In this document: one piece after another, positions 1 to 41,744 of the stretch | Layout of the letters: every line of letters starts with the position of its first letter | Position numbering within the stretch: the first letter of the stretch is position 1 | Assembly (NCBI GenBank): GCA_965279035.1 | Contig: OZ257142.1 | Coordinates: 1,664,001 to 1,728,000, forward strand | Origin: Bacteroidia bacterium | GTDB lineage: Bacteria; Bacteroidota; Bacteroidia; M30B66 | Direction of reading: 5' to 3' | DNA length: 64,000 nt | Program-made: the position numbers and the translations under genes | The notes under the pieces: model-generated | Database searches by the model: none | What the model was told of the DNA's origin: nothing | What the model saw: the letters and a program-made list of their open reading frames with translations, nothing else

Positions 1-221
1 ATCCCGAATTGAATTTAACATTCATTCCAAATAGTTTTCAAAATCCCAATCTCTTACATCTCATTCTTTATGAATTGAATTTCCCCAACTCCTAAATCTA
101 GGCTGTTTGATATTCATTCTCTCAGAATACAAATACATTCTTACATACGTTAGATATAACGTATTCGGTCGTTTGCTAACTGCTTTCTTCATTCACCTTT
201 GGATCAGCTAAATGCAAACAA

Positions 222-731
222 ATGACAAAACTCCTACTTTCTCTCACTGTATTTCTACCACTAGTCGGCTTTTCTCAATCCATAGAACGAAGCGTAATTG
301 CTGCTTCTGGATCTGTGATTTCGGAGAATACTTCGGGCATTTCTTTCAGTCAAACAATCGGCGAGCCTGTCGTATTAACGCAGCAAGTTCCTTCGGTGAT
401 TTTCACTCAAGGCTTTCAACAACCCGATGCCGATATGATAACGTCGGTTATATCACCATCAACAGGTCAATTCGAAACGGCTGTTTGGCCAAATCCATTC
501 GAAGACCAATTGGCTCTTTCCATCAAAAGCTCACGAAATGCCAATCTGAACGTGTCGTTTTGTGATTTAGCCGGAAGGAAAATTAGCGCTGATCAACTCA
601 TTCAAGTTTCATCCACTTCTTCTACGTGGAATATTGCTGTAGAAAATCTGGCTGCAGGTATTTACCTCATCCAAATCCGGAACACTCAAGGCGAATTAAT
701 CGCTACTCACCGGGTAAGTAAATCTCATTAA
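222..731 (+). CDS. Small T9SS type A sorting-domain protein (putative anchor/adaptor)
   Basis: Signal peptide; short domain SVIAASG...SQTIGEP...FTQGFQQP; CTD motifs VWPNP, DLAGRKI, LAAGIYLIQI. Confidence 0.85.
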   Translation: MTKLLLSLTVFLPLVGFSQSIERSVIAASGSVISENTSGISFSQTIGEPVVLTQQVPSVIFTQGFQQPDADMITSVISPSTGQFETAVWPNPFEDQLALSIKSSRNANLNVSFCDLAGRKISADQLIQVSSTSSTWNIAVENLAAGIYLIQIRNTQGELIATHRVSKSH

Positions 732-758
732 TCTTTTCTAAACCAACCCTAAAAGAAG

Positions 759-3700
759 ATGAAAAAATTCTCCTTTAACGCATTTGTATTTGGCATGCTC
801 ATGTTTGCCGCATCTGCAAACAAAGCCATCGCACAAGATGTTCCGCGTGGTATAAACTATCAAGCAGTTGCTCGTAATGCATCTGGACAATTGCTCAGCA
901 ATCAAAATTTGAGCGTTCGAATTTCTCTTTTGAGTCCCAATGCTTCTAATCCTTTAGTTTATCAGGAAATTCAAGCGAATGTTCAAACCAATCAATTTGG
1001 ATTGTTTAATCTAGTAATCGGGCATGGTGCTCAATCTGGTGGAGACGCAGAAAACTTTGCTGCAGTTGATTGGTCTTTACCCGATATGATGATTAAAATC
1101 GAAGCTGATCTCGGCTCTGGTTATGTGGATATGGGAACAAGCGCTCTTTGGTCTGTACCATACGCTTTGTATTCGGCCAATGGAACTCCTGGTCCCCAAG
1201 GTGAACAAGGGATTCAAGGTGAACAAGGTACTCCTGGTACTGATGGAGCAACCGGTCCGCAAGGTCCTCAAGGTCCAATCGGTTTAACAGGTCCACAAGG
1301 TCCCGCTGGCGCTGATGGAGCTACCGGTCCGCAAGGTCCTCAAGGAATTGCTGGTGCCGATGGCGCTCAAGGTCCTATCGGTTTAACTGGTCCACAAGGT
1401 GAACAAGGTCCCGCTGGCGCTGATGGATTAACTGGTCCGCAAGGTCCTCAAGGAATTGCAGGTGCTGATGGTGCTCAAGGTCCAATCGGATTAACTGGTC
1501 CACAAGGTCTTCAAGGTCCCGCTGGCGCTTATGGAGCAACCGGTCCGCAAGGTCCTCAAGGAATTGCAGGTGCTGATGGTGCTCAAGGTCCAATTGGTTT
1601 AACAGGTCCACAAGGAGATCAAGGTCCTGCTGGTCTCGCTGGCGCTGATGGAGCAACTGGTCCGCAAGGTCCTCAAGGAATTGCTGGTGTCGATGGTGCT
1701 CAAGGCCCAATCGGTTTAACTGGTCCTCAAGGGGAACAAGGTCCTGCTGGCTCTGACGGTGCTACTGGTCCGCAAGGTCCTCAAGGAATTGCTGGTGCAG
1801 ATGGTGCTCAAGGTCTAATCGGTTTAACTGGTCCACAAGGTGAAGTTGGTCCGCAAGGACCTGCTGGCGCTGATGGTGCAACTGGACCTCAAGGACCTCA
1901 AGGAATCCAAGGTATTCAAGGATTAACTGGTGCAACAGGTTTAACTGGTCATGCTGGTGCCGATGGTGCTACTGGTCCTCAAGGACCTCAGGGAATTGCA
2001 GGTCCACAGGGTGACGTTGGTCCTCAAGGTGAAGTTGGCCCACAAGGTCCACAAGGTATTTCGGGTGGTTTAGCATGGACAAGCGATCGTCCATATGTAG
2101 CTGGTGAAGTAGTCGTTTACCAAGGCGAAACGTATATCTGTCAATTGAATAATGATGGAGAACCCGGTGGAATTTTTCCTACGAATGAAACTTATTTTGC
2201 ACCGTACTCTCTCGTTGGCCCTCAAGGTCCACAAGGTGAAATGGGTCCACAAGGTCCGACTGGTTCTTCTAGCGCCAATGTGCTTACAGGTGTTGTCGCT
2301 GTTGTGAATGGTGGTACAGGAATGGATCATTTAGGTGAAGCATATCAACAAATCCGCGTGAACAGTACAGGTTCAGAACTAGAATATTTCACACCAACAC
2401 TTACTGGTGTTCAAAGTATCAATGGTTCAACAGAAGGAAATCAAACAATTGTTTCTGGTAATGCCGGAAACGATTTAAATATTAGTACCGATGCAGGTGT
2501 TCATACGATCAATATTCCCGATGCTGGAATTGATAGTCGTGGTTTAATTACAAATGGCTCTCAAACAATTGCTGGAAATAAAACCATCGTCAATCCATTG
2601 CAAATCAATAACAATGTATTCATTGCTACTACCGATGGAAGTCCTGGATACCACTTTGCAACTGATGGTGAGAACTTAGCAATTAGTCATACGGGTGTTA
2701 TGGATAATCAATTATATCTTCAGTCAAACGGAGATGTACAAGTTCGAAATAATCTAGTGGTTTCAGGTGCTGGACAAACAGGTGGCGGAATTATCCTTGC
2801 CGATGATGGAGATATGGTTGACATGAATAACGGTTATGCAACCATGCGATTTTCTGCTGGTGTTCAAGTAACGAATGGAAATCGTAGTGGTGATCCAGTA
2901 ATTACGCTTAGTTCAAACGGGAATGTTTCGGGTAATGCATTCATCAAAACTAATGGTACTGGAAATCAATTCTTAAAAGCTGATGGTAGTGTTGATGCAA
3001 CCGCTTATGCAACTGCTAACGATCTTACAAATCTCGGTTCTAATTTCCTACCATTAAGTGGTGGGACTTTAACCGGTAACTTAACAGGAACCGACGCTTC
3101 CTTAAACGGAATTAGCCTAAGTCGCGTTGGAAATACACCTTTTTTGAATTTCCCAAATGGAACAACTTTGAGTACCGTTGGTGATGAAAATAATAAGGAT
3201 ATCTTATTCCGAAACCTTGGTCAATTGCGCTTCTCCGATGCCAATGAATGGGATTGGAATGCTTGGGCTGGATTAAGTTATAAACGTGCTACCAATCAGG
3301 TTGTTTTTGGATTCCCCGATGGAGTGAATTTATCTGGTAATAATTCAGGAACCATGTTGTTTTCGAATGTTAACGAAGCATACATGGGCAATACAAACAA
3401 TATTGTTCTTCATACGGGAAATGTGCCAAACATGGCATTAACAACGGGAGCTTTAACATCGCCTTCAATTAATTTCTCTCAATCTGGGGCTACACCATTT
3501 ATCAATACAACAAATGGTGTTTCTTTAAGTACTGTGGGTGATCAAACAAACAAAGACTTAATCATCCGAAATCTCGGTCAATTGCGTTTTTCCGATAACA
3601 ACAATTGGGATTGGAATGCTTGGGCTGGTTTAGCTTACAAAAGTGCCAACAATCAAGTGGTTTTAGGATTTCCCGATAATGATAATTTTTCAGGAAATGC

Positions 3701-4781
3701 AACTGGAACCTTATTATTCAGCAATGTAAATGATGTATATGTGAGAAATTCTAACAACGTTGTCCTTCACACAGGCAATATCATGAATCGGAATTTAACA
3801 CTCGGTTCAGTTCTCGAAACAGATTTAACGCTTTCACAAACTGGTGCAACTCCATTTCTAAATCTACCAAGCGAAGTGTCAATGAGTACAACCGATGCTG
3901 GTGATTTAGTTCTCCGTAACCTCGATCAACTCCGCTTCACCGATGCCAACGATTGGGATTATAGCTCTTGGGCAGGATTGTCCTATAAACGAGCTAATAA
4001 TCAAGTTGTTTTAGGTTTTCCTGATGGCAATAATTTCCTAGGCGCTAATTCAGGTACTCTTTTGTTCAGCAACGTGAATGAAGCTTATATGGGAAATACC
4101 AATAATGTAGTTATTCACTCCGGTAATTATCAATCTAAAATCTCCAGTTTATCCAATCTGTCGCTTACACAAACTGGTGCAACACCATTCTTGAGTTTAC
4201 CAAGTGAAGTGTCAATGAGTACAACAGATGCCGGCGACTTAGTATTCCGTAACCTCGATCAACTTCGCTTTACCGATGCCAACGATTGGGATTATAGCTC
4301 TTGGGCAGGATTGGCATACAAACGTGCAACAAACCAAATTGTACTCGGATTCCCCGATGGCAATAACTTCCTTGGAAGCACAACAGGAACACTCTTCTTT
4401 TCGAATGTGAATAACGCCTACATTGGAAATACCAATCAAGAAATAATTCACACCGGAAATTTATCTCAGTTTGCATTACCTAAACCTGCTGATGCTGGAA
4501 CTCAAGGACAAATTCTATCGCTTTCAAACAATGGAACTACTGCTTGGGTAAATACGCGAACTGAAGTAGCCGATGAAGTTCTTGCTGGATCTGGTCAAGT
4601 CGATTTTACTTTATCCCAAGCTCCTTCTTCTGCTAGCAAAGTGAAAATGTATGTCAATGGAATTCGAATTAGCAATGCTGCTTATTCTATTTCTGGAACT
4701 ACTCTTACTTACGATGCTAATAACAACGGAGCTTATGTGTTATCAGCTGGTGATCGTATCCAATTCGATTATTCATATTAA
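759..4781 (+). CDS. Secreted collagen-like / tail-fibre-like repeat protein
   Basis: Signal peptide; PRGINYQAVARN...SVPYALY N-domain; long Gly-X-Y tract; CBM5/12-like WTSDRPY..GEVVVYQGETY; FLPLSGGTLTG; four ~110-120 aa repeats; no T9SS CTD. Confidence 0.85.
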   Translation: MKKFSFNAFVFGMLMFAASANKAIAQDVPRGINYQAVARNASGQLLSNQNLSVRISLLSPNASNPLVYQEIQANVQTNQFGLFNLVIGHGAQSGGDAENFAAVDWSLPDMMIKIEADLGSGYVDMGTSALWSVPYALYSANGTPGPQGEQGIQGEQGTPGTDGATGPQGPQGPIGLTGPQGPAGADGATGPQGPQGIAGADGAQGPIGLTGPQGEQGPAGADGLTGPQGPQGIAGADGAQGPIGLTGPQGLQGPAGAYGATGPQGPQGIAGADGAQGPIGLTGPQGDQGPAGLAGADGATGPQGPQGIAGVDGAQGPIGLTGPQGEQGPAGSDGATGPQGPQGIAGADGAQGLIGLTGPQGEVGPQGPAGADGATGPQGPQGIQGIQGLTGATGLTGHAGADGATGPQGPQGIAGPQGDVGPQGEVGPQGPQGISGGLAWTSDRPYVAGEVVVYQGETYICQLNNDGEPGGIFPTNETYFAPYSLVGPQGPQGEMGPQGPTGSSSANVLTGVVAVVNGGTGMDHLGEAYQQIRVNSTGSELEYFTPTLTGVQSINGSTEGNQTIVSGNAGNDLNISTDAGVHTINIPDAGIDSRGLITNGSQTIAGNKTIVNPLQINNNVFIATTDGSPGYHFATDGENLAISHTGVMDNQLYLQSNGDVQVRNNLVVSGAGQTGGGIILADDGDMVDMNNGYATMRFSAGVQVTNGNRSGDPVITLSSNGNVSGNAFIKTNGTGNQFLKADGSVDATAYATANDLTNLGSNFLPLSGGTLTGNLTGTDASLNGISLSRVGNTPFLNFPNGTTLSTVGDENNKDILFRNLGQLRFSDANEWDWNAWAGLSYKRATNQVVFGFPDGVNLSGNNSGTMLFSNVNEAYMGNTNNIVLHTGNVPNMALTTGALTSPSINFSQSGATPFINTTNGVSLSTVGDQTNKDLIIRNLGQLRFSDNNNWDWNAWAGLAYKSANNQVVLGFPDNDNFSGNATGTLLFSNVNDVYVRNSNNVVLHTGNIMNRNLTLGSVLETDLTLSQTGATPFLNLPSEVSMSTTDAGDLVLRNLDQLRFTDANDWDYSSWAGLSYKRANNQVVLGFPDGNNFLGANSGTLLFSNVNEAYMGNTNNVVIHSGNYQSKISSLSNLSLTQTGATPFLSLPSEVSMSTTDAGDLVFRNLDQLRFTDANDWDYSSWAGLAYKRATNQIVLGFPDGNNFLGSTTGTLFFSNVNNAYIGNTNQEIIHTGNLSQFALPKPADAGTQGQILSLSNNGTTAWVNTRTEVADEVLAGSGQVDFTLSQAPSSASKVKMYVNGIRISNAAYSISGTTLTYDANNNGAYVLSAGDRIQFDYSY
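1182..2063 (+). repeat. Collagen Gly-X-Y coding tandem repeat, ~108-bp period
   Basis: ggtccgcaaggtcctcaagga recurs at 1326, 1434, 1542, 1659 and 1767 (spacings 108, 108, 117, 108). Confidence 0.9.
3130..4461 (+). repeat. Four intragenic repeats (LRFxDxxxWD(W/Y)xxWAGLxYK...HxGN)
   Basis: Equivalent anchor positions at 3221, 3578, 3926 and 4259; copies 3 and 4 nearly identical in DNA. Confidence 0.9.
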
Positions 4782-4799
4782 TTAATTCCTTCGCGAATT

Positions 4800-6302
4800 A
4801 TGAGATATTTCCTTCACCTGTTGATTTGCATCCTGTTTACGCTAGATGCATCAGCGCAAGGAATAAATAAGCACGGACAAATAAATGTTTCGTCCGGAAT
4901 GGTAAATCAATACGGAGCAATTGGACAAAGTGGTTTAACAACTAATGGACGATTATTCACACCTGCTAATAATGGTAATTTAAACGCACTCGATTTCGAT
5001 GGAGGAGCTAATTATGTTGAGGTTCAGCCGGGTGTTTATTTTAACAGCGATTTTACGATCGAATGTTGGGTATATCCCCGCAGTTTTGGTAATTGGTCAC
5101 GTGTTATTGATTTTGGAAATGGAGCAGGAGCCAACAATGTTTTACTCGCTTACACTTGGGGAACAACGGGTAATCCAGCAGTTCACATCGACGGACAACA
5201 ATTCTATGCCGACAATGTGTTAGAGCTCAATACTTGGTCGCATTTGGCTGTTACGTTATCGGGTAATACATGTACTTTTTACATTAATGGAATTCCATCC
5301 GGCAGTAGCAATATGCCAACACCTAGCGATGTAATGCGTAACCAATGTTACATAGGAAAAAGCAACTGGAATGGCGATCCCAATGCGGATGCGCGTTTCG
5401 ATGAACTTCGAATTTTTAATTATGGAAAATCCGAAGCCGAAATTCTTGCAGGAATGCATCTCGAAGCATTTGGAAATGAAGCCGGTTTAGTAGCCTATTA
5501 CAATTTCAATCAAGGAAATGCAAATTCAAATAATGCAGGTATTTCTACGCTGACCGATAATTCTGGAAATGGTCATGCCGGTACTTTAAATGGGTTTGTA
5601 CTCGATGGTAATACCAGTAATTTTGTCCAAGGAGCTCCTTTAGGTGACGGTCTTTCTCCTGAAACGGCTGGTAGTAGCGCATTCTCTATCAAACAGAGTT
5701 TTCCGGCTTCAACGGATGGTTTGTATTGGATTCGAAATTTGAATATCAATGGTGGAACTCCTGTTCAGATTTATGCCGATATGACTACCGACGGTGGCGG
5801 TTGGACCTTAATTACATGTAATGCAGATAACGGTGGTTGGGATTATGCTAATGCAATCGAATTAAATACTGCAACACCAAGTATTAATTCCAATTATTCC
5901 ATCATTACATGGGCCGATTATTTGAAGAAAAGTGCTAGCGGTTTTCAATACATGATTGAATCAAATCAACGCCGTAGTTATGGTGGTATTTGGACTGCAA
6001 ATGGCGCTTATAGCTTTGTCAATAATACCAATTCACAAACCGATGTGACCATAAATACCAAATTCGGTATCGATGGAAGTCTAGGAACTTGGACCTATAG
6101 CGATGGCGGTATTGAGCAGCGAATGCCTTGGTATTCCGACTGTAGCGGCTACATAACAACTAGTTCCGATTGCGGCGGCGGCAGTTGGTGGGGAACATTA
6201 ATTTCAACAGGAGGTTGGAGTCCCGCACCTTGGATTGCCGGTGGCTGTGGCGACGAAGGTTGCATGCCGCATCCTGGTATACTTTGGTATTGGGTACGAT
6301 AA
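4800..6302 (+). CDS. Secreted LamG (concanavalin-like) + fibrinogen-C/intelectin-like protein
   Basis: Signal peptide; FTIECWV, WSHLAVT, FDELRIFN, LVAYYNFN (LamG); YADMTTDGGGWTL (fibrinogen-like); no T9SS CTD. Confidence 0.85.
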   Translation: MRYFLHLLICILFTLDASAQGINKHGQINVSSGMVNQYGAIGQSGLTTNGRLFTPANNGNLNALDFDGGANYVEVQPGVYFNSDFTIECWVYPRSFGNWSRVIDFGNGAGANNVLLAYTWGTTGNPAVHIDGQQFYADNVLELNTWSHLAVTLSGNTCTFYINGIPSGSSNMPTPSDVMRNQCYIGKSNWNGDPNADARFDELRIFNYGKSEAEILAGMHLEAFGNEAGLVAYYNFNQGNANSNNAGISTLTDNSGNGHAGTLNGFVLDGNTSNFVQGAPLGDGLSPETAGSSAFSIKQSFPASTDGLYWIRNLNINGGTPVQIYADMTTDGGGWTLITCNADNGGWDYANAIELNTATPSINSNYSIITWADYLKKSASGFQYMIESNQRRSYGGIWTANGAYSFVNNTNSQTDVTINTKFGIDGSLGTWTYSDGGIEQRMPWYSDCSGYITTSSDCGGGSWWGTLISTGGWSPAPWIAGGCGDEGCMPHPGILWYWVR

Positions 6303-6317
6303 AAAATAAATCATTAT

Positions 6318-6348
6318 AAAAAGGTCAGAATTCGTTCTGGCCTTTTTT
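6318..6348 (+). terminator. Rho-independent terminator
   Basis: aaaaaggtcagaa-ttcg-ttctggcctttttt. Confidence 0.85.
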
Positions 6349-6456
6349 ATTTTCAAAATCTGGATTTATTTTCATTTGGGCGGCGGGCACGCTATCCGCT
6401 TGTAGTCCTTATTGTATGCCTTCGCTAAAGCTTCGGCATACAAAGCGGGCTAACGC

Positions 6457-6739
6457 TTCTATCGTTGCCGCTTAATTTTACCCAATCACATTTAAATAAA
6501 ATCCAGCATCCCCGGATTTCAATCCGGGGTGCGTGCTGCTGTGTTTCCCCTTAACCCCGGATTGAAATCCGGGGCTACCTGTTTTATCGTTGCTGCTAAC
6601 GTATAATTTATATTTCATGGGTTTCATCAATCATCTATTCATCATCCATCAACGCCGGAATTTTTATTCTATCGTTGCCGCTTAATTTTACCCAATCACA
6701 TTTAAATAAAATCCAGCATCCCCGGATTGAAATCCGGGG
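6457..6739. repeat. REP cluster 1: three CCCCGGATT(TC/GA)AATCCGGGG palindromes within a ~73-bp direct duplication
   Basis: Palindromes at 6510-6529, 6555-6574 (GTAG foot on minus strand) and 6720-6739; 6457-6529 is duplicated at 6667-6739. Confidence 0.85.
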
Positions 6740-6845
6740 CAAATACCTAAAAAATAGGTACAAATAAAAGATAGAAAACAAACATCTCTAATATCACCAT
6801 AAGCCGTTTATACGCCTATATTTGAATACAATCTAACCTATCACC

Positions 6846-9050
6846 ATGTTACGTTTAAAACCAATTTATTTTTTCATTCAATTTATTCTACTGATTTTAT
6901 TTTCAATTCCCAGTAATGCTCAAATCAACATCGTTTCCTATGCAGGAAATTCAAGTCGAGAAACATTTTACGATGTTGCCCAATTGAGCGATGGAACATT
7001 TATTATAGGAGGATATTGTGAAAATTTAGATTGGATTTCGGCTTCCGTTCCGCGCACGCAACTGAGCTGGACTGGCTCTATTCCCAATGCTCAAGGAACA
7101 AATCGCTATGGATTCTTAATTCAACTTTCTCCCGATTTCCAAACCATGTTGAATGTTGTGCATTTCCCACAAGGTGCAGTTGAAGACATTCGATTTATCA
7201 AAACCAATGCGCTTCCCTATGCAACAACGGGCGATCTTTATATAAGCTGCAATACGTCCGACAGCGATAATAACAACGGTGGATACATCATTGCTAAACT
7301 CAACAATAATTTCGTCAACGGAATTCCTACTGCATTGAGTTGGATCAATGTTGTTTGGGCGAAATCAGGGCCGAAAGAGTATCATCCTTGGGATGTGACG
7401 AACGATGGAAAGGTGTTTTACATTTCTGGTGAAGCTTATGGTTACGATTGGAGCGCGGTGTATTGTCTCGATCAAACTGGACGTCGAACAGTTGTAAATA
7501 ATTGGCGAACGCATTGGCTCAAAGATGGAACAGAATGGCACGGCTTTCCAGCATCAGCAAACCCAACAGGAGATCTCGATTGGGTTAACTTTAGTGGTAT
7601 AGTTTTGAAAAGTTGGGGCCGTTGCGATTTACGATCGTGGACATTGAACGATTACAACAGCATTTTACCCGATGGAAATGGCGGAACTAAAAAAGGAAAA
7701 TGGCCGGTTGATGTATTGTTTAACGGTCCATGCGATCCTCAAAATCCAAGCACAAATGGACCCGGTTATTCGGGTTATTCGCAAGAATCCTGTTGTCCGG
7801 TTTATGGTGGAAGCAACATTGTAATTGATAAACGGAATAACAATCTGTATATCGGGATGAATATGAAGAGCTATTACAATCCCAGCAACACACCCGATTT
7901 TGAACCAGCTATCATCGCTATGGACAGTGAAGGAACGCTTCGTTGGTGGAGTCGTTTATACCATGAAATAACTCCTGCTGGCGATACGGTTGCTTCCATT
8001 CCGGATCAATATATCGATGCCTTGGCGATTGATTACAATCATAATCAATTAGTAGTAAATGCTCGCACACATGGAAATAACACGGAGAATTTTTGGGAAG
8101 GAAATACACTCGCTGCCAATCCACAAGCTCTTGGTTTTCAAAATCAATTTACCGGAACCTCGGGCAATATTCATGTTTCATGGTTAGGGAAATTGCAACT
8201 CTTAGATGGAACAATTTTACATTCCACCTATGTGGCTGAACTCAGCGATGCAACGGGTTCTCTTGGCACACTACATTCCGATCCAAACTTGGATGGATGG
8301 CCCGATCCCAATACAGGATGGCCTAATGTGAATACAACGCGTTTAGCTAAAAATAATCTCAAAGTAAGTAGCAACGGCGATGTATGTATTTTGGGTCTTG
8401 GTCGAAGAACCATTACAACAGCCAATGCATACCAAAAAATGGTAAAACCTCAGTTTGGTGGACATAGTGCATGGAATAGTTTTGTTCGTGTGTATGATTC
8501 CAATTTAAGTGTCCCAAAATATTCTTCTTTAGTTGTTGGTGTTTGGGATACGGTAAGTCAAGTAGGAGGTAGCAATACCGAAATCTTCGGACTATATAAA
8601 ACAGCAAATGGTATTGTTGCAGTAGGTCGACAAACCGCCGATACGAGTAATGTTGCTCAAGGAAACAATCTTCCAATTTCTCAAGTTCCATCCTGGGGAA
8701 ATACCACAGCACAGGGTGAAAGCGCTATATTGGTTTATTACACTGCAAGTAATTTATACAATCCGAATGATTCAATTCAAGGCGGAATAATTACGAATAT
8801 AGCACCTGCCAAGTCAAACGATATTACACTATTTCCCAATCCAGCAAGCGATCGAGTTTGGTTGAATTTCAAAGGTTCACTTTCAAATCAAAACTGGACA
8901 TATCAATTAATCGATATGAGTGGGCGTTGCATTCAAAAAGGAAATCTACTTGGGAACTACATTCCATTAAATTCAATTAGCAGCGGTATTTATCAGATTC
9001 AATTGAATAATGAAAAATCAACTTATTCTAATAAACTGATCGTATTATAA
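6846..9050 (+). CDS. T9SS type A cargo protein, probable beta-propeller, unknown function
   Basis: Signal peptide; LFPNPASD...DMSGRCI...SSGIYQIQL CTD. Confidence 0.8.
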   Translation: MLRLKPIYFFIQFILLILFSIPSNAQINIVSYAGNSSRETFYDVAQLSDGTFIIGGYCENLDWISASVPRTQLSWTGSIPNAQGTNRYGFLIQLSPDFQTMLNVVHFPQGAVEDIRFIKTNALPYATTGDLYISCNTSDSDNNNGGYIIAKLNNNFVNGIPTALSWINVVWAKSGPKEYHPWDVTNDGKVFYISGEAYGYDWSAVYCLDQTGRRTVVNNWRTHWLKDGTEWHGFPASANPTGDLDWVNFSGIVLKSWGRCDLRSWTLNDYNSILPDGNGGTKKGKWPVDVLFNGPCDPQNPSTNGPGYSGYSQESCCPVYGGSNIVIDKRNNNLYIGMNMKSYYNPSNTPDFEPAIIAMDSEGTLRWWSRLYHEITPAGDTVASIPDQYIDALAIDYNHNQLVVNARTHGNNTENFWEGNTLAANPQALGFQNQFTGTSGNIHVSWLGKLQLLDGTILHSTYVAELSDATGSLGTLHSDPNLDGWPDPNTGWPNVNTTRLAKNNLKVSSNGDVCILGLGRRTITTANAYQKMVKPQFGGHSAWNSFVRVYDSNLSVPKYSSLVVGVWDTVSQVGGSNTEIFGLYKTANGIVAVGRQTADTSNVAQGNNLPISQVPSWGNTTAQGESAILVYYTASNLYNPNDSIQGGIITNIAPAKSNDITLFPNPASDRVWLNFKGSLSNQNWTYQLIDMSGRCIQKGNLLGNYIPLNSISSGIYQIQLNNEKSTYSNKLIVL

Positions 9051-12143: not shown

Positions 12144-13847
12144 ATGAATTCGGAAATTATTGGAGTAATCCTTATGTTTTTATTGCTTGTTATATTGGCT
12201 ATTCCATTTGGAAAGTATATCGGCAAAGTGATTAATTATGAACACACATGGCTCGATAAAATCATCAATCCAATTGATCAGCTATTTTTTAAAATTAGTG
12301 GTATAGATGCTACCAAAGAAATGAATTGGAAGCAACATTTGCTTGCCTTGCTCAGTTTGAATTTGGTGTGGTTTATTCTATCCGTGTTCGTTCTGATGAA
12401 TATGAGTTGGCTGCCACTTAATCCAGATGGAAATCCCTCAATGAGTGGCGATTTAGCCTTTAACACCTCCGTTAGTTTTGTTACCAACACAAATCTTCAA
12501 CATTATTCTGGAGAAAATGGAATTTCCTATTTAGGTCAACTCTTCTTAATGCTTTGGCAATTTATAAGCGCTGGAACTGGAATCGCCATATGTGCAGTCG
12601 TTTTCATTGCAATGAAAGAACGGACAACTAAAACATTAGGTAATTTTTATTCACTTTTTATTAGAAGTTGCACGCGCATTTTATTTCCATTAGCTGTTGT
12701 TGTTGCAATCATTTTAGCGTTCAATGGAACTCCCATGACTTTCGAAGGAAAAGATTCGATGGTTTCGTTGCAAGGAGATACCGTTCAAGTAAGTCGTGGA
12801 CCTGTTGCTTCCTTTGTTGCTATCAAACATTTAGGAACAAACGGAGGAGGTTTTTTTGGTGCGAATTCGGCTCATCCTTTCGAAAACCCAAACTATATAA
12901 CCAACATCACCGAAATCATAACTCAAATGCTTATCCCACTCGCTATGGTGTTTGCTTTGGGCTATGTGCTTAAGCGGAAACGGTTTGCCTTTATGGTTTT
13001 TGGTGTTATGACCTTGGGATTTATATTATTAACTGTTCCTACTATTATTTCTGAAATAAATGGGAATCCTGCCATTGAGAATTTAGGAATTGCGCAACAA
13101 AATGGTAATATGGAAGGCAAAGAAATGCGATTCGGCTCTGCAGCCTCTGCTTATTGGAGTATTGCAACTACCGTTATTTCTACCGGAAGCGTCAATAGCA
13201 TGCATGATAGTTATACTCCGCTTGCTGGAATGTACCAACTCATCGCTATGATGGTAAATTGTTTTTACGGAGGTGTTGGTGTAGGATTTTTGAATTTCTA
13301 TATTTTTATCATTCTCGCTGTTTTTATTAGTGGTTTAATGGTTGGTCGAACTCCCGAATTTCTAGGGAAAAAAATCGAAGCCAAAGAGATGAAAATAGCC
13401 ATGATGATTGCTCTTCTACATCCTTTGCTTATCCTTTCTGGAACTGCACTCTCCAGCTTTATTTATGCAAATAATTCTGCAGCATATGCTGGTTGGTTAG
13501 CAAATCCAGGCTATCATGGATTTAGCGAAATGCTCTATGAATTTACATCTTCAAGTGCTAACAATGGTAGTGGTTTCGAAGGACTTGGTGATAATACGGC
13601 ATTTTGGAATATTGCCTGTGGAATAGTAATGTTACTGGCTCGCTTTTTACCAATCATTGGTCCTGTTGCTATTGCTGGGATTTTGGCAAGTAAAAAATAC
13701 ATTCCCGAAAGCAACGGAACGCTCAAAACTGATACATCAACATTTGGATTTATGGTATTTGCTATCATCGCACTTGTTGCAGCATTAGCCTTCTTTCCTG
13801 CGCTAACTCTTGGTCCTATTGCTGAATATTTTAATATGATTAAATAA
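12144..13847 (+). CDS. kdpA: K+-transporting ATPase subunit A
   Basis: [27 protein letters not shown] motifs. Confidence 0.97.
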
Positions 13848-13855
13848 TTAGGAAA

Positions 13856-15892
13856 ATGGCAACAAATCCATCATTATTTCAAAAAGAATTAATGCTTGAA
13901 GCTTTCAAACATTCTTTTCTAAAACTCAATCCAGTATTGATGTTTCGCAATCCAGTGATGTTTACTGTCGAGATTGGAACATTGGTCATGCTTGGTGTTT
14001 GTCTTTGGATTATCTCTGGAGAAAATTCTCAAGGAAGTTTACTTTATAATTGTACAATTTTCTTCGTGTTATTTCTCACCTTATTATTTGCCAATTTTGC
14101 AGAAGCAATAGCCGAAGCACGTGGAAAAGCACAAGCAAATAGTCTACGTAAAACACGGAAAGAAACTCCTGCTAAAAAAGTTTTTCCTTTAGGTGATTTA
14201 ACAACGGATGAAATTCGAATTGTTTCCTCATCCAAACTAGTAAAAGAAGATATTTTCATTTGTGAAGCAGGTGATATCATTCCAACCGATGGTGAAATCA
14301 TTAAGGGATTAGCAACTATCGACGAATCAGCTATAACTGGAGAATCAGCTCCTGTTATTCGTGAAGCTGGTGGTGACAAAAGCTCTGTAACAGGCGGCAC
14401 GAAAGTGCTTAGTGATAAAATTACTGTACGTGTTACTACCGAACCAGGAGAGAGTTTTTTAGATAAAATGATCGCTTTGGTTGAGGGTGCTAGTCGACAA
14501 AAACCCCCCAATGAAATTGCATTAACTATTTTATTGGCAGGATTTACACTGGTTTTTATCATTGTAACTGTTACTCTTAAACCATTTGCTGATTTTGCAA
14601 ATACACCTATCACTATAGCTGCATTTATTTCATTATTTGTTTGCTTAATTCCAACAACGATTGGGGGTTTATTATCTGCCATTGGTATCGCTGGAATGGA
14701 TCGTGCATTACGTGCGAATGTTATAACAAAAAGTGGTAAAGCGGTAGAAACTGCTGGTGACATCGATGTTTTATTATTAGATAAAACAGGGACCATTACC
14801 ATTGGAAATAGAAAAGCAACACATTTTTATCCATCGAACAGTATTGATCCAACCCATTTCACACAATGTGTTGTTTTAAGTTCTATGAGCGATGAAACTC
14901 CCGAAGGAAAATCCATCATTGAATTAGCTGGATTGAACCCTTTGAGTTTTCCTATTCAATCACCTCGATTTATAAAATTCACTGCCGAAACTCGAAGTAG
15001 TGGAATTGATTTCGAAAATACGCGTATCCGAAAAGGAGCAACCGATTCAATCAAATCAATGTGTCAGGAAGCTGGAAATGGCTTTCCTGTCGAGACTGCC
15101 GAACGTGTGAAAATAATTTCTCAAAACGGTGGAACGCCTTTGGTTGTTTCCGAAAATGAACAAGTAATTGGTGTTATTGAGTTGCAAGATATTATTAAGC
15201 CAGGCATTCAAGAACGTTTTGAGCGTCTTCGAAAAATGGGAATTAAAACGGTTATGGTTACTGGAGATAATCCATTAACTGCAAAATTCATTGCAGAAAA
15301 AGCAGGTGTGGACGATTTTATTGCAGAAGCAAAGCCGGAAGATAAAATGAACTACATCAAAAAAGAACAATCCGAAGGACGATTAGTTGCCATGATGGGA
15401 GATGGAACAAACGATGCTCCTGCTTTAGCTCAAGCTGATGTTGGTGTTGCGATGAATAGTGGAACTCAAGCAGCCAAAGAAGCTGGTAATATGGTTGATT
15501 TAGATAATGATCCAACCAAATTAATTGAGATTGTTGAAATTGGTAAACAATTATTAATGACGCGTGGAACATTAACTACTTTCAGTATTGCCAATGATGT
15601 TGCTAAATATTTTGCCATCATTCCTGCATTATTTATTGTCGCAATTCCTGCACTTCAAGGACTCAATATTATGCATTTACACAGTCCTGAAAGTGCCATT
15701 CTTTCAGCTGTTATTTTTAATGCATTGATTATTCCTATCCTTATTCCATTAGCTTTAAAAGGAGTTGCATATAAACCCATTGGGGCAAGTGCTTTACTAC
15801 GAAGAAATCTCTTTATATATGGCTTAGGAGGAGTGTTAATCCCCTTTATTGGAATAAAAGTTATTGATCTACTTGTTTCAGTTTTTATTTAA
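13856..15892 (+). CDS. kdpB: K+-transporting ATPase subunit B
   Basis: [19 protein letters not shown] motifs. Confidence 0.97.
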
Positions 15893-15902
15893 TTTTCTTA
15901 CG

Positions 15903-16478
15903 ATGAAATCAACTTTTTTAATTGCTATAAAATTAACGTTTGTTTGTCTGATTTTCTTTGTTGGATTGTATTCACTGGTTTTATTAGGAATAGCTCAATT
16001 AGCCCCCAATCAAGGCAAAGGAGAAATTCTAATCGATAACGGAAAGACATATTATGCCAATATAGGTCAACTTTTTAATCAAGATAAATACTTCTGTTCA
16101 CGCCCTTCGGCAGTTACATATAATGCAGCAGGTAGTGCTGGAAGTAATAAAGGACCAAGTAACCCGGAATATTTAGCTGAAGTAAAAAGCAGAATTGATA
16201 CATTTCTTGTTCATAATCCTGGAATTAAGATATCCGAAATTCCTTCCGATATTGTTACAGCAAGTGGTAGCGGACTCGATCCCCATATTTCAGTTCAAGC
16301 TGCAAAAATTCAAGTAAAACGGATTGCTATCATTCGGAATTTACGAGAAAATGATGTATATCAACTCATTGATAAAAACATCGAAAAGCCCCTCCTTGGT
16401 TTTCTAGGAACCGAAAAAGTTCATGTACTAAAACTGAATCTTGCCTTGGATCAACTTAACAACATTTCAAAACAATAA
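15903..16478 (+). CDS. kdpC: K+-transporting ATPase subunit C
   Basis: VTASGSGLDPHIS motif; ATG at 15903 preferred. Confidence 0.95.
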   Translation: MKSTFLIAIKLTFVCLIFFVGLYSLVLLGIAQLAPNQGKGEILIDNGKTYYANIGQLFNQDKYFCSRPSAVTYNAAGSAGSNKGPSNPEYLAEVKSRIDTFLVHNPGIKISEIPSDIVTASGSGLDPHISVQAAKIQVKRIAIIRNLRENDVYQLIDKNIEKPLLGFLGTEKVHVLKLNLALDQLNNISKQ

Positions 16479-16496
16479 TTTTCACACTAAAAAACT

Positions 16497-17873
16497 ATGA
16501 AAAATTTTACTCAAATCATTTTCAATACTGCTTTTATTTGTATTGGTCTTGTTAGCTTTAATTCGTTGCAAGCACAGCAAAAGGGTCAACCCTTCGAAGG
16601 CATTGATCAAACTTGGCAAAATGGAAGTGATCGACGAGATTCCTCCGTTTTTAATAAAATGAAATATTTTACTCCAAGTATTTTAATGGATGTGAATTAC
16701 ACCAATTCATTTAATAATCCAAACGATAATACAGTAGTTGGTTCAACTGCACTGGCTAGAAATAATGAGGTGCAATTATCTGCACTGCATTTTGGCGGTG
16801 AAGTAAATTACAATAATGCTCGAGCTAAATTCATGACTCAATTTGGAACACGTTCGATTGTTGTTCCTCGTAACGATATAAGTCCTTACAAAGGGCAATA
16901 TCAACTTGCAAATGTGTATCGCTATTTAGCCGAAGCTAATGCTGGTTATCATTTCAATGTATGGAATGGAATTAATATCGATGCTGGTATGTTTATGTCT
17001 TACATCGGATTAAATTCCTACTATCAACCCGAAAACTGGGAATATCAAGCTTCTTTTACATCTGATAATACTCCTTGGTTTTTTAATGGTCTTCGGATTC
17101 AAATTCATCCAAATAAAAACTGGAAAATTGAACCTTGGATTATCAATGGATGGCAGAGTTATGGTAAATTTAATAAAATGCCTGGTGTTGGAGGTAATAT
17201 CACCTATATGAGCTCCAATAGCAATTTAAAAGCACTCACAAATAACTATTATGGAACCGATGCAGGTGGTTTGCCAGGTCGTAAACGTTTCCATTCCGAC
17301 AACAGTGTTTTATTGCGTTACTTCAATAGACCCGAATCTTCTGGAATTAGTAAAATGGCATTTTCTCTTACTGGTGATTTTGGTTTCGAAAAAGGCGGTG
17401 GAGTTAATGGATTGAAAAACGGTGATTCTTTACAAGGGCCAGCACAGTATTTTGCAAGTGCCATGTTTTATAATCGAATCTGGTTTGCTAAGAATAAATG
17501 TGCATGGACTATTGGTGGTGGTGTGATGACCAATCCAGGTCGTTATCTAGTACTTTATCCAACAGGTCAAGCAAGTCCATTGCCGAATCCTAACAACCCA
17601 ACAACAACAGAAGGGGCTTTTCCATTCAGTGCCAATATAGGAGATCAATTTAAGGGCTGGGATATTTCTACTAATTTTGATTGGATGCCAAATCAAAGTA
17701 TCACATTTCGAATTGAGTTAGTTCATCGTGGATCAAGTGTGCCCTATTTTGCAGGTGCTGGTGGTGTAACATCTCAAACTGGATATACAACCACACCGTT
17801 AGATCCGAATTGGAGACCTGATCTCGTGAAATCCGAAACTCGAATTATTGGAGCTATTTTATTTCGCTTGTAA
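16497..17873 (+). CDS. Outer-membrane beta-barrel porin (BBP2-like), kdp-associated
   Basis: Signal peptide; DAGMFMSYIG, NTPWFFNG, WIINGWQ motifs; beta-strand C-terminus. Confidence 0.8.
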   Translation: MKNFTQIIFNTAFICIGLVSFNSLQAQQKGQPFEGIDQTWQNGSDRRDSSVFNKMKYFTPSILMDVNYTNSFNNPNDNTVVGSTALARNNEVQLSALHFGGEVNYNNARAKFMTQFGTRSIVVPRNDISPYKGQYQLANVYRYLAEANAGYHFNVWNGINIDAGMFMSYIGLNSYYQPENWEYQASFTSDNTPWFFNGLRIQIHPNKNWKIEPWIINGWQSYGKFNKMPGVGGNITYMSSNSNLKALTNNYYGTDAGGLPGRKRFHSDNSVLLRYFNRPESSGISKMAFSLTGDFGFEKGGGVNGLKNGDSLQGPAQYFASAMFYNRIWFAKNKCAWTIGGGVMTNPGRYLVLYPTGQASPLPNPNNPTTTEGAFPFSANIGDQFKGWDISTNFDWMPNQSITFRIELVHRGSSVPYFAGAGGVTSQTGYTTTPLDPNWRPDLVKSETRIIGAILFRL

Positions 17874-17949
17874 TTGGTTTTATTTTTAAATCGCAAATTC
17901 CATTATTCAAGAAGGATGGTGGAATTTGCTTTTAAGATTAGCATGTGCA

Positions 17950-19074
17950 ATGACTGAGAAAGATAAAAATGTTCAACATTTTCTCGATTTAATTAAAAAG
18001 TCGAGAAAAGGAAAATTTAAGATTTATATCGGAATGAGCGCCGGAGTAGGTAAATCGTATCGAATGCTTCAAGAAGCGCATGCATTACTCAAAAGTGGTA
18101 TCGATGTAAAAATAGGATACATTGAAACACATAATCGATTAGAAACACACGAATTGCTGAATGGATTGCCTGTAATTCCTCGTAGGAAATTGTTTTATAA
18201 AGGCAAAGAATTGGAAGAAATGGATGTACAAGCTGTCATCAATCTTCGTCCAGAAGTGGTGATTGTAGATGAATTAGCGCATACCAATATTGAAGGAAGT
18301 AAAAATGAAAAACGCTGTCAAGATGTTCTTGAAATTTTAGATGCTGGTATTAATGTAATTTCTGCAGTTAATATTCAGCACATTGAAAGTTTAAATGAAG
18401 AAATAAAAACCATTACTGGAATCGATGTAAAAGAACGAATTCCGGATAGTGTTTTAGCGCAAGCGGATGAAGTGGTGAATATTGATTTGACTGCCGATGA
18501 ATTGATTGCTCGATTAAAAGAGGGAAAAATCTATCAAGCGGATAAAATTGAAACGGCATTAACTAATTTCTTCAAAAGCGATCATATTTTACAATTACGA
18601 GAACTTGCTTTAAAGGAAGTTGCGTCTCAGGTTGAACGGAAGGTTGAATCGGAAATTACAAAGCCAAATTCGATTAAGCACGAACGTTTTATGGCCTGTA
18701 TAAGTAGTAACGACAAAACGGCAAAAAATGTCATTCGTAAAACTGCTCGATTAGCCAATTACTACCATAGTAAATGGTTTGTATTTTATGTTCAAACTCC
18801 TGATGAAAATCCCAATAAAATTGCCTTAGACAAACAACGTCATTTGATTAATAATTTCAAACTTGCCACTGAATTGGGTGCTGAAATTAAACGGGTTGAA
18901 AATAGAAGCATTGCTAATGCTATCATGGAAATGGCGATTGATCGGAATATAACTACAATTTGTATTGGAAAACCCCACTTGAATCTTTTTAAAATCATCA
19001 GATCGACAGCGATTTTCAATCAACTCTTGAAAAAGTTATCTTCTAATCATATTGATCTTGTAATTCTATCCTAG
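17950..19074 (+). CDS. kdpD: KdpD N-terminal sensor (KdpD + Usp domains) without TM or kinase
   Basis: GMSAGVGKSY, VDELAHTN, NIQHIESLN motifs; C-terminal Usp-like domain. Confidence 0.92.
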   Translation: MTEKDKNVQHFLDLIKKSRKGKFKIYIGMSAGVGKSYRMLQEAHALLKSGIDVKIGYIETHNRLETHELLNGLPVIPRRKLFYKGKELEEMDVQAVINLRPEVVIVDELAHTNIEGSKNEKRCQDVLEILDAGINVISAVNIQHIESLNEEIKTITGIDVKERIPDSVLAQADEVVNIDLTADELIARLKEGKIYQADKIETALTNFFKSDHILQLRELALKEVASQVERKVESEITKPNSIKHERFMACISSNDKTAKNVIRKTARLANYYHSKWFVFYVQTPDENPNKIALDKQRHLINNFKLATELGAEIKRVENRSIANAIMEMAIDRNITTICIGKPHLNLFKIIRSTAIFNQLLKKLSSNHIDLVILS

Positions 19075-20802: not shown

Positions 20803-20916
20803 GTCTAGAATTTTATTTATGATACAGTTTTCAACATATCCATGCTTATCTAATGTTGATTCATAATCATTTTAATTCCATTTTCTTTCTTCTATTTGTT
20901 TCTTCTAACATTGATT

Positions 20917-22041
20917 ATGAAATCAATTTCTACTCATTTAATTTCTTCCATCCTCCTAGTATTTTCATCTTATACAGGCTATTCTCAAGTAGCCAATACG
21001 GGAATGGTTGAGCAAATGGATAGTTCGGAAATTGGAAAAATTGTATTGAGTGGATATGTCGATACGTATTATGGATTTGATTTTAATCAACCTGCTCAAT
21101 CCGATCGACCTTATACTGTTTCATCTCCTCGTCATAATGAAGTCAATATAAACTTGGCGTATTTAGGAGTGAATTATACCAATGAAAAAGTGCGTGGTCG
21201 ATTTATTCCTGGATTTGGGAATTATATGAATTCGAATTATGCCACTGAAATAGGTTCTTTGAAAAACATTGTTGAAGCAAATGCTGGTGTACGACTATCA
21301 AAGAAATATGACATTTGGGTTGATGCAGGTGTAATGGGGTCTCCTTATACAAATGAATCAGCCATTTCGCGCGACCATTTAATGTACACGCGTTCTTTTG
21401 CACCCGAATTTGTCCCTTATTATTTGACTGGTGTTAAATTATCCGGGAAAATATCTTCAAAATTAACAGGCTATCTCTATATTTTAAATGGGTGGCAGCA
21501 CATTACGGATACCAATAATCCACTTTCCATCGGAACACAAATCGAATATCGTCCTACGAGTAAACTGCTCATTAATTGGAATACCTATGTGGGAGATGAA
21601 TATTCTACACAAACTCCCACATTCGGAATACGTTATTTCAGTGATATCTATGCTATCTATAATCCAGATGGGAAGTTCACTTTCACGAGTTGTTTCTATG
21701 CTGGCTATCAACAAATTCGTCAACCGGGTATATCCGATTCTTACGCACAATGGTGGCAAGCCAATTTTATAGCACGTTATTCATTCAATAAAACATCCTC
21801 TCTTTCTGGTAGAATTGAATATTTTGACGATCCTAATAAAGTTCAAATTACTCCTATAACTACTTCTCCTCAATTTAGTACCGCAAGTGCTGGACTTTGT
21901 TACAATTATAAAATCACCAAGAATGCTCTTTTTAGATTGGAATACCGTAATTACTTTTCTGATAAACCGGTTTATGTGAGAGAAAATAGGAGTGTAAATA
22001 ATGATAATTTGATAATAGGAAATTTAACAGTTTGGTTTTAA
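20917..22041 (+). CDS. Second BBP2-like outer-membrane porin
   Basis: SGYVDTYYGFDFN, PYYLTG, NGWQ motifs; terminal Phe. Confidence 0.85.
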   Translation: MKSISTHLISSILLVFSSYTGYSQVANTGMVEQMDSSEIGKIVLSGYVDTYYGFDFNQPAQSDRPYTVSSPRHNEVNINLAYLGVNYTNEKVRGRFIPGFGNYMNSNYATEIGSLKNIVEANAGVRLSKKYDIWVDAGVMGSPYTNESAISRDHLMYTRSFAPEFVPYYLTGVKLSGKISSKLTGYLYILNGWQHITDTNNPLSIGTQIEYRPTSKLLINWNTYVGDEYSTQTPTFGIRYFSDIYAIYNPDGKFTFTSCFYAGYQQIRQPGISDSYAQWWQANFIARYSFNKTSSLSGRIEYFDDPNKVQITPITTSPQFSTASAGLCYNYKITKNALFRLEYRNYFSDKPVYVRENRSVNNDNLIIGNLTVWF

Positions 22042-41647: not shown

Positions 41648-41744
41648 GTGTGATGTTTGTGTTAAAAAATCCTCAGAACGCAAATCTAACGAATTATCAA
41701 TTCGTTAAGCAATAGTTTCCTTAACATGTTAGGAATTACATTGT

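Follow-up and report, generated by a model that had tools for sequence, protein, structure and literature searches.

How a large fibre could reach the surface of a bacterium when neither the fibre nor its apparent binding tip carries a type IX secretion system (T9SS) signal is the question raised by three adjacent genes near the start of a 64,000-nucleotide (nt) stretch of DNA from a Bacteroidia bacterium (NCBI GenBank assembly GCA_965279035.1, contig OZ257142.1, positions 1,664,001 to 1,728,000 of the forward strand), which we call the window. The three open reading frames (ORFs) encode a small protein with a T9SS C-terminal sorting domain (CTD), a long collagen-stalked fibre and a lectin-like protein. 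We propose, at about even probability, that they are parts of one surface fibre, with ORF1 as a partner that supplies the CTD in trans, ORF2 as the fibre and ORF3 as its lectin tip. The pairing of ORF1-type genes with fibre genes, and of the fibre C-terminal domain with ORF3-type genes, are real, conserved linkages; the contacts between the proteins, their route of export and the chemistry of anchoring are all inferred. The genes and the site that closes the group are:

222..731, + strand: ORF1, 169 amino acids (aa), with putative signal peptide, A-module (see below), short linker and T9SS type A CTD.
759..4781, + strand: ORF2, 1340 aa, a collagen-stalked fibre resembling the mosaic adhesive trimer (MAT) fibres, without CTD.
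4800..6302, + strand: ORF3, 500 aa, a putatively secreted lectin-like protein without CTD.
6318..6347, + strand: terminator-like hairpin with a 13-bp stem followed by a T run, 16 nt past the ORF3 stop.

A preliminary description, made from the sequence of the window, had read this as three co-oriented genes closed by a single terminator, and the ORF calls and the hairpin bear it out. The genes share one orientation, with gaps of 27 nt (732-758) between ORF1 and ORF2 and 18 nt (4782-4799) between ORF2 and ORF3, and the hairpin is the sole plus-strand terminator-like site of such strength within positions 1-7000. The number of terminator-like sites of all kinds in these positions (7) is no excess over shuffled sequences (6.1 +/- 2.4). 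The hydrophobic N-termini of the three proteins end in ...SQ, ...AQ and ...AQ, respectively, and were read from the sequence as putative signal peptides; that of ORF1 closes with ...GFSQ and its hydrophobic start is conserved in the family alignment A2, and an AlphaFold2 (AF2) model of ORF2 aa 1-150 places a helix at aa 3-23.

The same description had confined the CTD to the 169-aa protein and had seen little in that protein besides a small domain and the CTD. Pfam and NCBIfam scans of all three ORFs agree on both points. The CTD of ORF1 (aa 88-159) matched PF18962 Por_Secre_tail with 47.4 bits (cutoff 27) and TIGR04183 with 34.7 bits (cutoff 23), and neither ORF2 nor ORF3 gave a PF18962, PF13585 or TIGR04183 match at E <= 0.1. 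The small domain is a module of about 50 aa, which we call the A-module:

276..431, + strand: A-module (aa 19-70 of ORF1); its closing motif, T-Q-G-F-Q-Q-P, hardly varies in alignment A4 of 41 sequences.
483..698, + strand: T9SS type A C-terminal sorting domain (ORF1 aa 88-159), PF18962 and TIGR04183.

No Pfam or NCBIfam family matched the A-module, and the ESM Atlas returned only unnamed Bacteroidota clusters (0.83-0.85). When 1.84 billion cluster representatives were searched with a profile of the module, 8050 of them matched at E <= 1e-3, including 2095 at E <= 1e-10. The best 150 of these have a median length of 165.5 aa with the module mostly at about aa 17-70, a local hidden Markov model (HMM) found a CTD in 112 of the 125 among them that are at least 150 aa long, and no fusion of an A-module with a fibre N-domain was present in these 150. 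A word-index homologue search with ORF1 retrieved only 3 relatives and so understates the family compared with the profile search. ORF1 represents a large unnamed family built of a signal peptide, an A-module of about 50 aa and a CTD. Other arrangements of the module also occur. It is present in two tandem copies in proteins of 221-917 aa (P0125, P0127, P0190), and it stands at the N-terminus of a very large adhesin encoded directly 3' of a fibre gene (L010:9336-16406; G004:C2:36147-36302); in Polaribacter this adhesin is a 2717-aa open frame with LamG, SUEL lectin, HYR and immunoglobulin-like (Ig-like) domains.

ORFs were called in 78 fibre loci, and the A-module HMM, built without the CTD, was run over these ORFs. 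In many of the loci a gene directly 5' of the fibre encodes a protein of about 165 aa, made up of a putative signal peptide whose last residue is Q, an A-module, a short linker and a CTD. The HMM detected 40 ORFs, which are spread over 38 of the 78 loci and all lie on the strand of the fibre. A CTD was found in 38 of the 40, of type A in 35 and of type B (CHU_C), with a SprB repeat, in 3; the other 2 ORFs are cut by locus ends. In 27 cases the A-module gene lies directly 5' of the fibre with a gap of 0-104 nt (median 12), followed in some loci by a second fibre in tandem, and in the remaining layouts it lies two genes 5' or directly 3' of the fibre. In one locus an ORF 5' of the fibre (L016:7484-7987) has a normal CTD and an N-terminal part unlike the A-module, which may be a frameshift or an assembly error of the metagenome-assembled genome. 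In a complete genome, adjacent A-module and fibre N-domain hits (G001:C1:1721261-1722215, - strand) each contain an in-frame TAG and may be a decaying copy.

Co-occurrence was measured in 301 evenly drawn Bacteroidota genomes. The A-module was present in 31 of them, the fibre N-domain in 75 and both in 30. Among 51 A-module hits, 44 share contig and strand with a fibre N-domain that is at most 6 kilobases (kb) away; 28 of these hits lie upstream of it and 16 downstream. Inspection of four genomes that seemed to have the fibre only revealed in all of them a divergent small gene of the same build, here called A', directly 5' of an S74 fibre. A' occurs in 29 of the 301 genomes, all 29 fibre-positive, and all 29 A' hits are directly upstream of a fibre. 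The two kinds of module taken together divide the sample as follows:

A or A' present: 58 genomes with the fibre N-domain, 1 without.
A or A' absent: 17 genomes with the fibre N-domain, 225 without.

The Fisher odds ratio for this association is 768 (p 2e-45); the p value overstates the independence of the genomes, because no correction for phylogeny was made. The co-occurrence and synteny of the anchor module with the fibre N-domain, which the preliminary description had put forward as a check, were both seen: 58 of the 59 genomes with A or A' have the fibre N-domain, and 73 of 80 module hits (A and A') adjoin a same-strand fibre gene. Five whole genomes gave a similar picture, with 12 of 15 A-module hits within 2.5 kb of a same-strand fibre N-domain hit.

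The fibres that accompany these modules lack the CTD themselves. None of 76 complete fibre C-termini had a CTD at E <= 1e-4 (one more was too short to scan), and no CTD family was present among the 120 N-domain homologues listed of 152. Components of the T9SS occur inside several of the clusters. PorV is the shuttle that binds the CTD, and PorP/SprF proteins are carriers of type B cargo. In the layout of the Chitinophaga/Pedobacter type, the A-module gene is followed by a gene x, a gene y and then the fibre; gene x encoded a PorV paralog in all four cases tested (E 1e-43 to 1e-49), and a local HMM found six PorV-paralog cassettes in five loci (L017, L034, L038, L065 with two, and L078). A PorP/SprF gene follows all 3 A-module proteins of type B. 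Gene y encodes a proline-rich secreted protein of 114-146 aa that belongs to no family and is a conserved further component of the Chitinophaga/Pedobacter-type clusters. A different combination was observed in L165 (G152:C14:46000-56500), which encodes four proteins: a 176-aa A-module CTD protein, a fibre of 550 aa whose C-domain is of the ORF2 type, a 207-aa outer membrane protein beta-barrel located between these two, and a beta-helix/Ig protein of 1045 aa that lacks a CTD.

Analysis of ORF2 itself recovered the parts that had been named for it at the outset, namely a head with the motif NYQAVARN..SVPYALY, a collagen stalk, repeats and a compact C-terminal domain, all of which are present in the sequence or the AF2 model:

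834..1178, + strand: conserved N-domain of the fibre (ORF2 aa 26-140), which is a beta-sandwich with homology to the MAT N-domain of Bdellovibrio (NF053851).
1182..2072, + strand: collagen G-X-Y run (aa 142-438, 99 triplets), found by regular expression on the translation; Pfam Collagen E 2.6e-46.
2073..2147, + strand: CBM_5_12-like motif (aa 439-463), a weak match (PF02839 E 0.0017, 18.8 bits, cutoff 26.2).
3117..4508, + strand: four stalk repeats of about 111-119 aa, starting at about aa 787, 906, 1025 and 1136, from sequence alignment.
4563..4778, + strand: C-terminal beta-sandwich of about 72 aa (AF2), with a fold apparently of the phage tailspike/tail-fibre docking type.

The 99 G-X-Y triplets are unbroken, and the DNA beneath them contains a tandem repeat of period 108 (Tandem Repeats Finder rows 1295-1906). 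Uninterrupted G-X-Y triplets form a collagen triple helix, which implies that ORF2 is a putative trimer. Three of the stalk repeats were aligned and are 57-80% identical to one another. The CBM_5_12-like hairpin motif between collagen and stalk is kept in the close relative P0002. The profile NF053851 (Bdello_MAT_N) matched the whole of ORF2 at aa 22-101 (E 1.4e-9, 38 bits) and the fragment aa 1-150 with E 6.7e-12 and 45.5 bits, both under the cutoff of 60 and spanning profile positions 7-86 of 162 only. The same profile matched all 28 aligned Bacteroidota N-domains, the best with E 2.2e-13. Judged from these profile matches, the ORF2 N-domain is homologous to the Bdellovibrio MAT N-domain, even with the cutoff of the curated model not reached, and ORF2 probably belongs to the Bacteroidota branch of the MAT fibres.

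The AF2 model of the N-domain is a beta-sandwich with a mean predicted local distance difference test (pLDDT) score of 86. Foldseek found nothing in the PDB at E <= 1e-3 for this model, and its best VIA-align Z was 6.8, in a range rated as common for this tool. Matches of the N-domain to T9SS CTD-like sandwiches (PorU 6za2_B, Z 6.0; mirolase CTD, Z 5.4) tie with many fibronectin type III and Ig domains, so that no conclusion was drawn from them. The MAT N-domain is likewise without a specific PDB relative in PMC10769870. Caulton et al. 2024 describe 21 such fibres in Bdellovibrio bacteriovorus (PMC10769870), and Table S3 of the paper includes five MAT proteins of the 'FCB group'. The fibre itself is not a new type, because the family was described and FCB group members were already tabulated there.

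The family is large and varied beyond its N-domain. A search with the N-domain gave 152 proteins whose downstream parts include collagen, Peptidase_S74, C1q, YadA head, BclA_C, Fib_succ and others, and the C-termini of these relatives are Peptidase_S74, C1q, Lcl_C, YadA_head, ALK_LTK_GRD or nothing recognisable; ORF2 is a member without S74. At least 614 copies of the N-domain were confirmed by tblastn in species-representative genomes, often several per genome.

The distal part of the proposed fibre consists of the C-domain of ORF2 and of ORF3. The C-domain model has pLDDT values of 91-95 in the blocks that cover model residues 41-110, and the domain is kept in 17 other loci at 43-95% identity. 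The fold of the N-terminal region of tailspike TSP4 of phage CBA120 mediates spike-to-hub and spike-to-spike docking in phages, and this region gave the best PDB matches of the C-domain, with E from 1.2e-3 (7rfo_C) to 2.3e-3 and a root-mean-square deviation (rmsd) of 1.5 over 70 columns for 7rfv. The next PDB matches were chains of phage tail, neck and portal complexes, including a podovirus nozzle-and-fibre complex. Against BFVD the domain matched 45 phage proteins at E <= 1e-3, several of them with TMq about 0.5-0.6 and rmsd 1.8-2.3 over 68-78 columns; among them are depolymerases of Klebsiella phage K64-1, a tailspike with the label 'TSP1/Gp66 N-terminal domain' and a 'tail fiber adaptor protein'. 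By sequence, the last 100 aa of ORF2 had no Pfam match (including PF03906 Phage_T7_tail) and a single chance-level hit in the PDB (E 1.1); the ESM Atlas offered one lead, a cluster with a score of 0.89 in which 13% of members have PF03906. The tip of Bd0726 is likened to the XD1 domain of CBA120 TSP4 in Table S1 of PMC10769870.

The two lectin-like folds attributed to the 500-aa protein were identified as a Laminin_G_3 domain and a fibrinogen-like region with a GGGWT_bact motif domain:

4857..4979, + strand: N-terminal segment of ORF3 (aa 20-60) with three N-x-x-G units, a speculative candidate for a docking peptide.
4998..5444, + strand: Laminin_G_3 / concanavalin-like lectin domain (aa 67-215), PF13385 E 5.4e-28, 98.5 bits (cutoff 27.6).
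5646..6299, + strand: fibrinogen-like region (aa 283-500), with the GGGWT motif domain at aa 293-338 (NF040941).

NF040941 scored 60.1 bits (cutoff 30), and Pfam Fibrinogen_C scored 19.6 bits, under its cutoff of 22. ORF3 has many metagenome relatives. The set used for the tip comprised 30 loci with a fibrinogen-like relative of ORF3 at >= 45% identity, some of them near-duplicates, of which 25 had enough upstream sequence. In 19 of these 25, an ORF ending within 400 nt upstream has a C-terminus that matches the last 75-100 aa or so of ORF2 at 52-94% identity. The stalks 5' of this C-domain vary by locus, and the downstream proteins, of 468-1182 aa, are built from LamG, Ig and fibrinogen-like parts; the fibrinogen-like region is what ORF3 has in common with the longer ones. 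None of 13 downstream lectin-type proteins scanned had a CTD. In the 301 genomes an ORF2-type C-domain was found in 3, each time at the end of a fibre. Of the proteins encoded after these 3 fibres, one is a beta-helix protein, two are Ig-like and one, of 189 aa, belongs to no family, and all lack a CTD; such variety fits exchangeable partners and does not by itself prove docking.

A segment of about 40 aa after the signal peptide, with three spaced N-x-x-G units (for example L-N-K-x-G-Q), is common to ORF3 and its full-length homologues (L085-L100). The 189-aa protein 3' of another ORF2-type fibre (L166:1734-2303) begins in a similar way, and a similar motif closes a 732-aa Ig-like protein (L167:3191-5389). 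Speculatively, three short N-x-x-G repeats facing the three-fold end of the fibre could be a docking device, a pattern that was seen by eye.

The mechanism that we propose combines these elements. ORF2, as a trimeric fibre of the MAT family, would cross the inner membrane by Sec without a T9SS signal of its own; the A-module of ORF1 would bind the conserved fibre N-domain in the periplasm, and the CTD of ORF1 would lead the two together through the translocon of the T9SS. Thereafter the A-module would keep the base of the fibre at the outer membrane. In Porphyromonas, the CTD of type A cargo is cleaved and lipopolysaccharide is attached; anchoring here may follow the same course or, in clusters that encode a carrier of the PorV or PorP type, may depend on that carrier. 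ORF3 would ride on the phage-type docking domain at the C-terminus of the fibre as an exchangeable binding tip. In general terms, the T9SS would export and mount pre-assembled, CTD-less trimeric fibres with clip-on lectin tips by hitch-hiking, and the A-module, which would bind the MAT N-domain and supply the CTD in trans, would be the 'surface element' of MAT fibres; this wider statement we regard as possible and hold more tentatively than the assignment of the three proteins to one fibre. Peptidase_S74 is a C-terminal chaperone that is cleaved off after folding. A split design would suit the S74 fibres, of which the family has many, because the T9SS signal has to be C-terminal and a CTD on the fibre chain would be lost with the cleaved chaperone. 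Cleavage of the C-terminal S74 chaperone was demonstrated for Bd3182 (PMC10769870).

Several results weigh against this mechanism. The five whole genomes gave 15 A-module hits against 42 fibre rows, in 40 of the 78 fibre loci no A or A' lies within about 8 kb (the upstream side could not be assessed in 3 of these), and neither module was found in 17 of the 75 fibre-positive genomes sampled; it follows that not every fibre has a partner in cis, and that several fibres would need to share one. Fibres homologous to these are displayed in Bdellovibrio, which is not known to have a T9SS, and the N-domain is therefore not inherently T9SS-dependent. A mirror-tree (Mantel) test with 28 pairs gave no A-module-specific signal of co-evolution, because the CTD of the same proteins, taken as a control, correlates with the fibre N-domain better (r 0.82) than the A-module does (r 0.66; partial r of A-module and fibre given the CTD, 0.33). 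At the other end of the fibre, every PDB fold match of the C-domain is above E 1e-3, no N-terminal motif is common to all downstream proteins, and 6 of the 25 ORF3-like genes have no ORF2-type C-domain upstream. The synteny of C-domain and ORF3, also put forward in the preliminary description, thus held in one direction (19 of 25) and not in the reverse, where an ORF3-like gene followed none of the 3 C-domain fibres of the 301-genome sample, and this pairing looks looser than that of the anchor. A 1:1 complex prediction of ORF2 aa 26-146 with ORF1 aa 19-86 (ipSAE 0.01 and 0.02, without controls) weighs neither way.

The negative mirror-tree test, the fibres without a partner and the display in Bdellovibrio make a dock-only arrangement the main rival, in which the T9SS would export ORF1 alone as a surface dock, the fibre and ORF3 would leave by a T9SS-independent route and the N-domain would attach outside. 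The co-occurrence and adjacency data fit it equally well, and the many fibre genes without a cis partner are easier to explain if one dock serves several fibres. However, the PorV paralogs and PorP/SprF proteins tie the whole cluster, beyond ORF1, to the T9SS, and we know of no alternative outer-membrane route for a folded collagen trimer in Bacteroidota; overall we consider a dock for fibres exported elsewhere unlikely. Surface exposure of the MAT fibres in Bdellovibrio, with an N-domain expected to bind a surface element (PMC10769870), is a further point on its side. It is less probable still that the three proteins are co-regulated and physically independent, ORF1 having a role of its own, ORF3 being a free lectin and the gene order reflecting a shared regulon or a mobile cassette. 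The mirror-tree control without an A-specific signal and the heterogeneity of the proteins 3' of ORF2-type fibres would agree with independence, but it would leave ORF2 and ORF3 without an export route, and would not explain why a module of about 50 aa tracks one N-domain across Bacteroidota orders, in three layouts and with both CTD types.

For ORF3 and its counterparts, a role as assembly factors for the fibre C-terminus, rather than as a permanent tip, was also considered. Phage tail-fibre assembly proteins are usually encoded just 3' of fibre genes, and the position of ORF3 directly 3' of the fibre, with its tie to one C-terminal domain, matches this layout. ORF3 is made of LamG and fibrinogen-like lectin-type domains, however, and among its counterparts are proteins of up to 1182 aa in which LamG and Ig domains each occur several times or together in number. 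Against PHROG, ORF3 matched 8 families (baseplate wedge, virion structural, unknown), six of them on the LamG domain, one on aa 289-355 in the fibrinogen-like region and one reaching aa 256, with no fibre adhesin or tail-fibre assembly annotation among the eight; we judge an assembly role improbable, marginally more so than independence of the three proteins. That the locus is a prophage or tailocin remnant and its proteins are virion parts is hardly credible, and we rejected it on genomic context. ORF2 has many PHROG tail-fibre matches and its C-domain fold appears to be of phage type, but the best-matching stretches listed for PHROG are confined to about aa 119-512, which is in essence the collagen run. 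In addition, all three proteins have putative signal peptides, the fibre family is multicopy per genome and found beside T9SS genes, and the surroundings are ordinary chromosome, with kdp genes, PBP2/RodA and further T9SS cargo as neighbours and no phage genes among the 40 ORFs of the window that were scanned.

Set beside known systems, the proposed arrangement of anchor, fibre and tip resembles several of them in part. Known T9SS cargo carries a functional passenger and the CTD on one chain. ORF1 shares the standard type A CTD with the cargo of Porphyromonas gingivalis and Flavobacterium johnsoniae, and related clusters carry PorV paralogs or PorP/SprF; ORF1, however, has a CTD and almost no passenger, whereas the large fibre and the lectin have no CTD. 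The docking domain of phages lies at the N-terminus, where it attaches the fibre to the virion or to a second spike. The receptor-binding complexes of phages (the branched CBA120 TSP1-4 hub, T7 gp17-N, T4 gp37/gp38) likewise have a small beta-sandwich, apparently of the same class, on a trimeric fibre and a separately encoded binding protein directly 3' of the fibre gene; they differ in that the C-domain here stands at the C-terminal, presumably distal, end with no sequence family match, and in that ORF3 has no PHROG match to tail-fibre adhesins or assembly proteins. A collagen triple-helix stalk on a surface adhesin is also found in Scl1/Scl2 of Streptococcus and Lcl of Legionella, but the match of ORF2 is limited to the collagen (NF046116, 182 bits with a cutoff of 500; NF038329, 164 with 325; NF038330, 125 with 400), and ORF2 has neither an LPXTG anchor nor the Lcl C-terminal domain.

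Hitchhiker export, as in Tat co-translocation and peroxisomal import (PMC9251779), offers a likeness in that the signal of one subunit would carry a folded partner without a signal; for the T9SS we found no report of it in the literature searched, and here it is a proposal. The MAT fibres of Bdellovibrio resemble ORF2 and its relatives in having a signal peptide, a homologous beta-rich N-domain of about 130 aa, a stalk that is trimeric (for ORF2, by prediction) and swappable C-terminal tips including S74 (PMC10769870), and the Bd0726 tip and the ORF2 C-domain both resemble the same CBA120 TSP4 PDB entries. ORF2 differs in scoring 38-45 bits against the curated cutoff of 60 and in having a collagen stalk. 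The authors of PMC10769870 expect the MAT N-domain to bind a surface element, which the paper does not identify; it names no partner in the text consulted, and 'secretion' has 0 occurrences in its main text and 'T9SS' 0 in the searched supplement text. The view of the preliminary description that no characterised system is like this one has to be narrowed: the fibre is probably of the known MAT type, and what appears to be new is the partner, as no description of a CTD-bearing partner for MAT-type fibres, or of in-trans T9SS targeting, was found in the literature searched, which left subscription papers mostly outside.

The recurring split of secretion tag, fibre and sugar-binding tip over separate proteins points to an undescribed way of mounting surface fibres. 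What defines T9SS cargo is a CTD that the exported protein itself carries, and targeting in trans would, if true, be an addition to this definition. The A-module is a concrete candidate for what the conserved MAT N-domain binds at the surface, the question left by PMC10769870. The scale is considerable, with the fibre N-domain in 75 of 301 Bacteroidota genomes, more than 600 copies in species representatives and about 8000 A-module cluster representatives. The separation of anchor, stalk and tip suggests that environmental and host-associated Bacteroidota have a toolkit of modular adhesins, and the ligand specificity of the tips (C1q-like, lectin, S74 and others) could shape attachment, predation or phage-like recognition of other cells.

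A close relative, L083 (2186-7455), keeps the same gene triple as positions 222-6302 of the window, and its identity to the window climbs along the operon, from 58% in the A-module through 72% in the N-domain to 94-98% in the fibre C-terminus and 97% in ORF3. The CTD of its A-module protein is 84% identical, against the 58% of the A-module. Two of the four stalk repeats of about 115 aa are absent from L083, and the stalk length differs by about 270 aa. Judged by this one comparison, the two ends of the fibre, anchor and tip, seem to be modules that evolve separately.

Elsewhere in the window, three proteins besides ORF1 have a CTD, which speaks indirectly for a T9SS machinery in this genome. 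A 734-aa type A CTD protein with no other recognisable domain is encoded at 6846-9050 (+ strand), separated from the operon by about 540 nt and the hairpin. The other two are T9SS type A cargo on the - strand, a 1328-aa M43 peptidase with PKD domains at 24205-28194 and a 676-aa protein at 39650-41683 in which the CTD is the sole recognised domain. In the region 12144-22041 (+ strand), a kdpABC operon comes first; after it lie an OmpL-like porin, then the sensor domain of KdpD and a histidine kinase as separate adjoining ORFs, and then a second OmpL-like porin.

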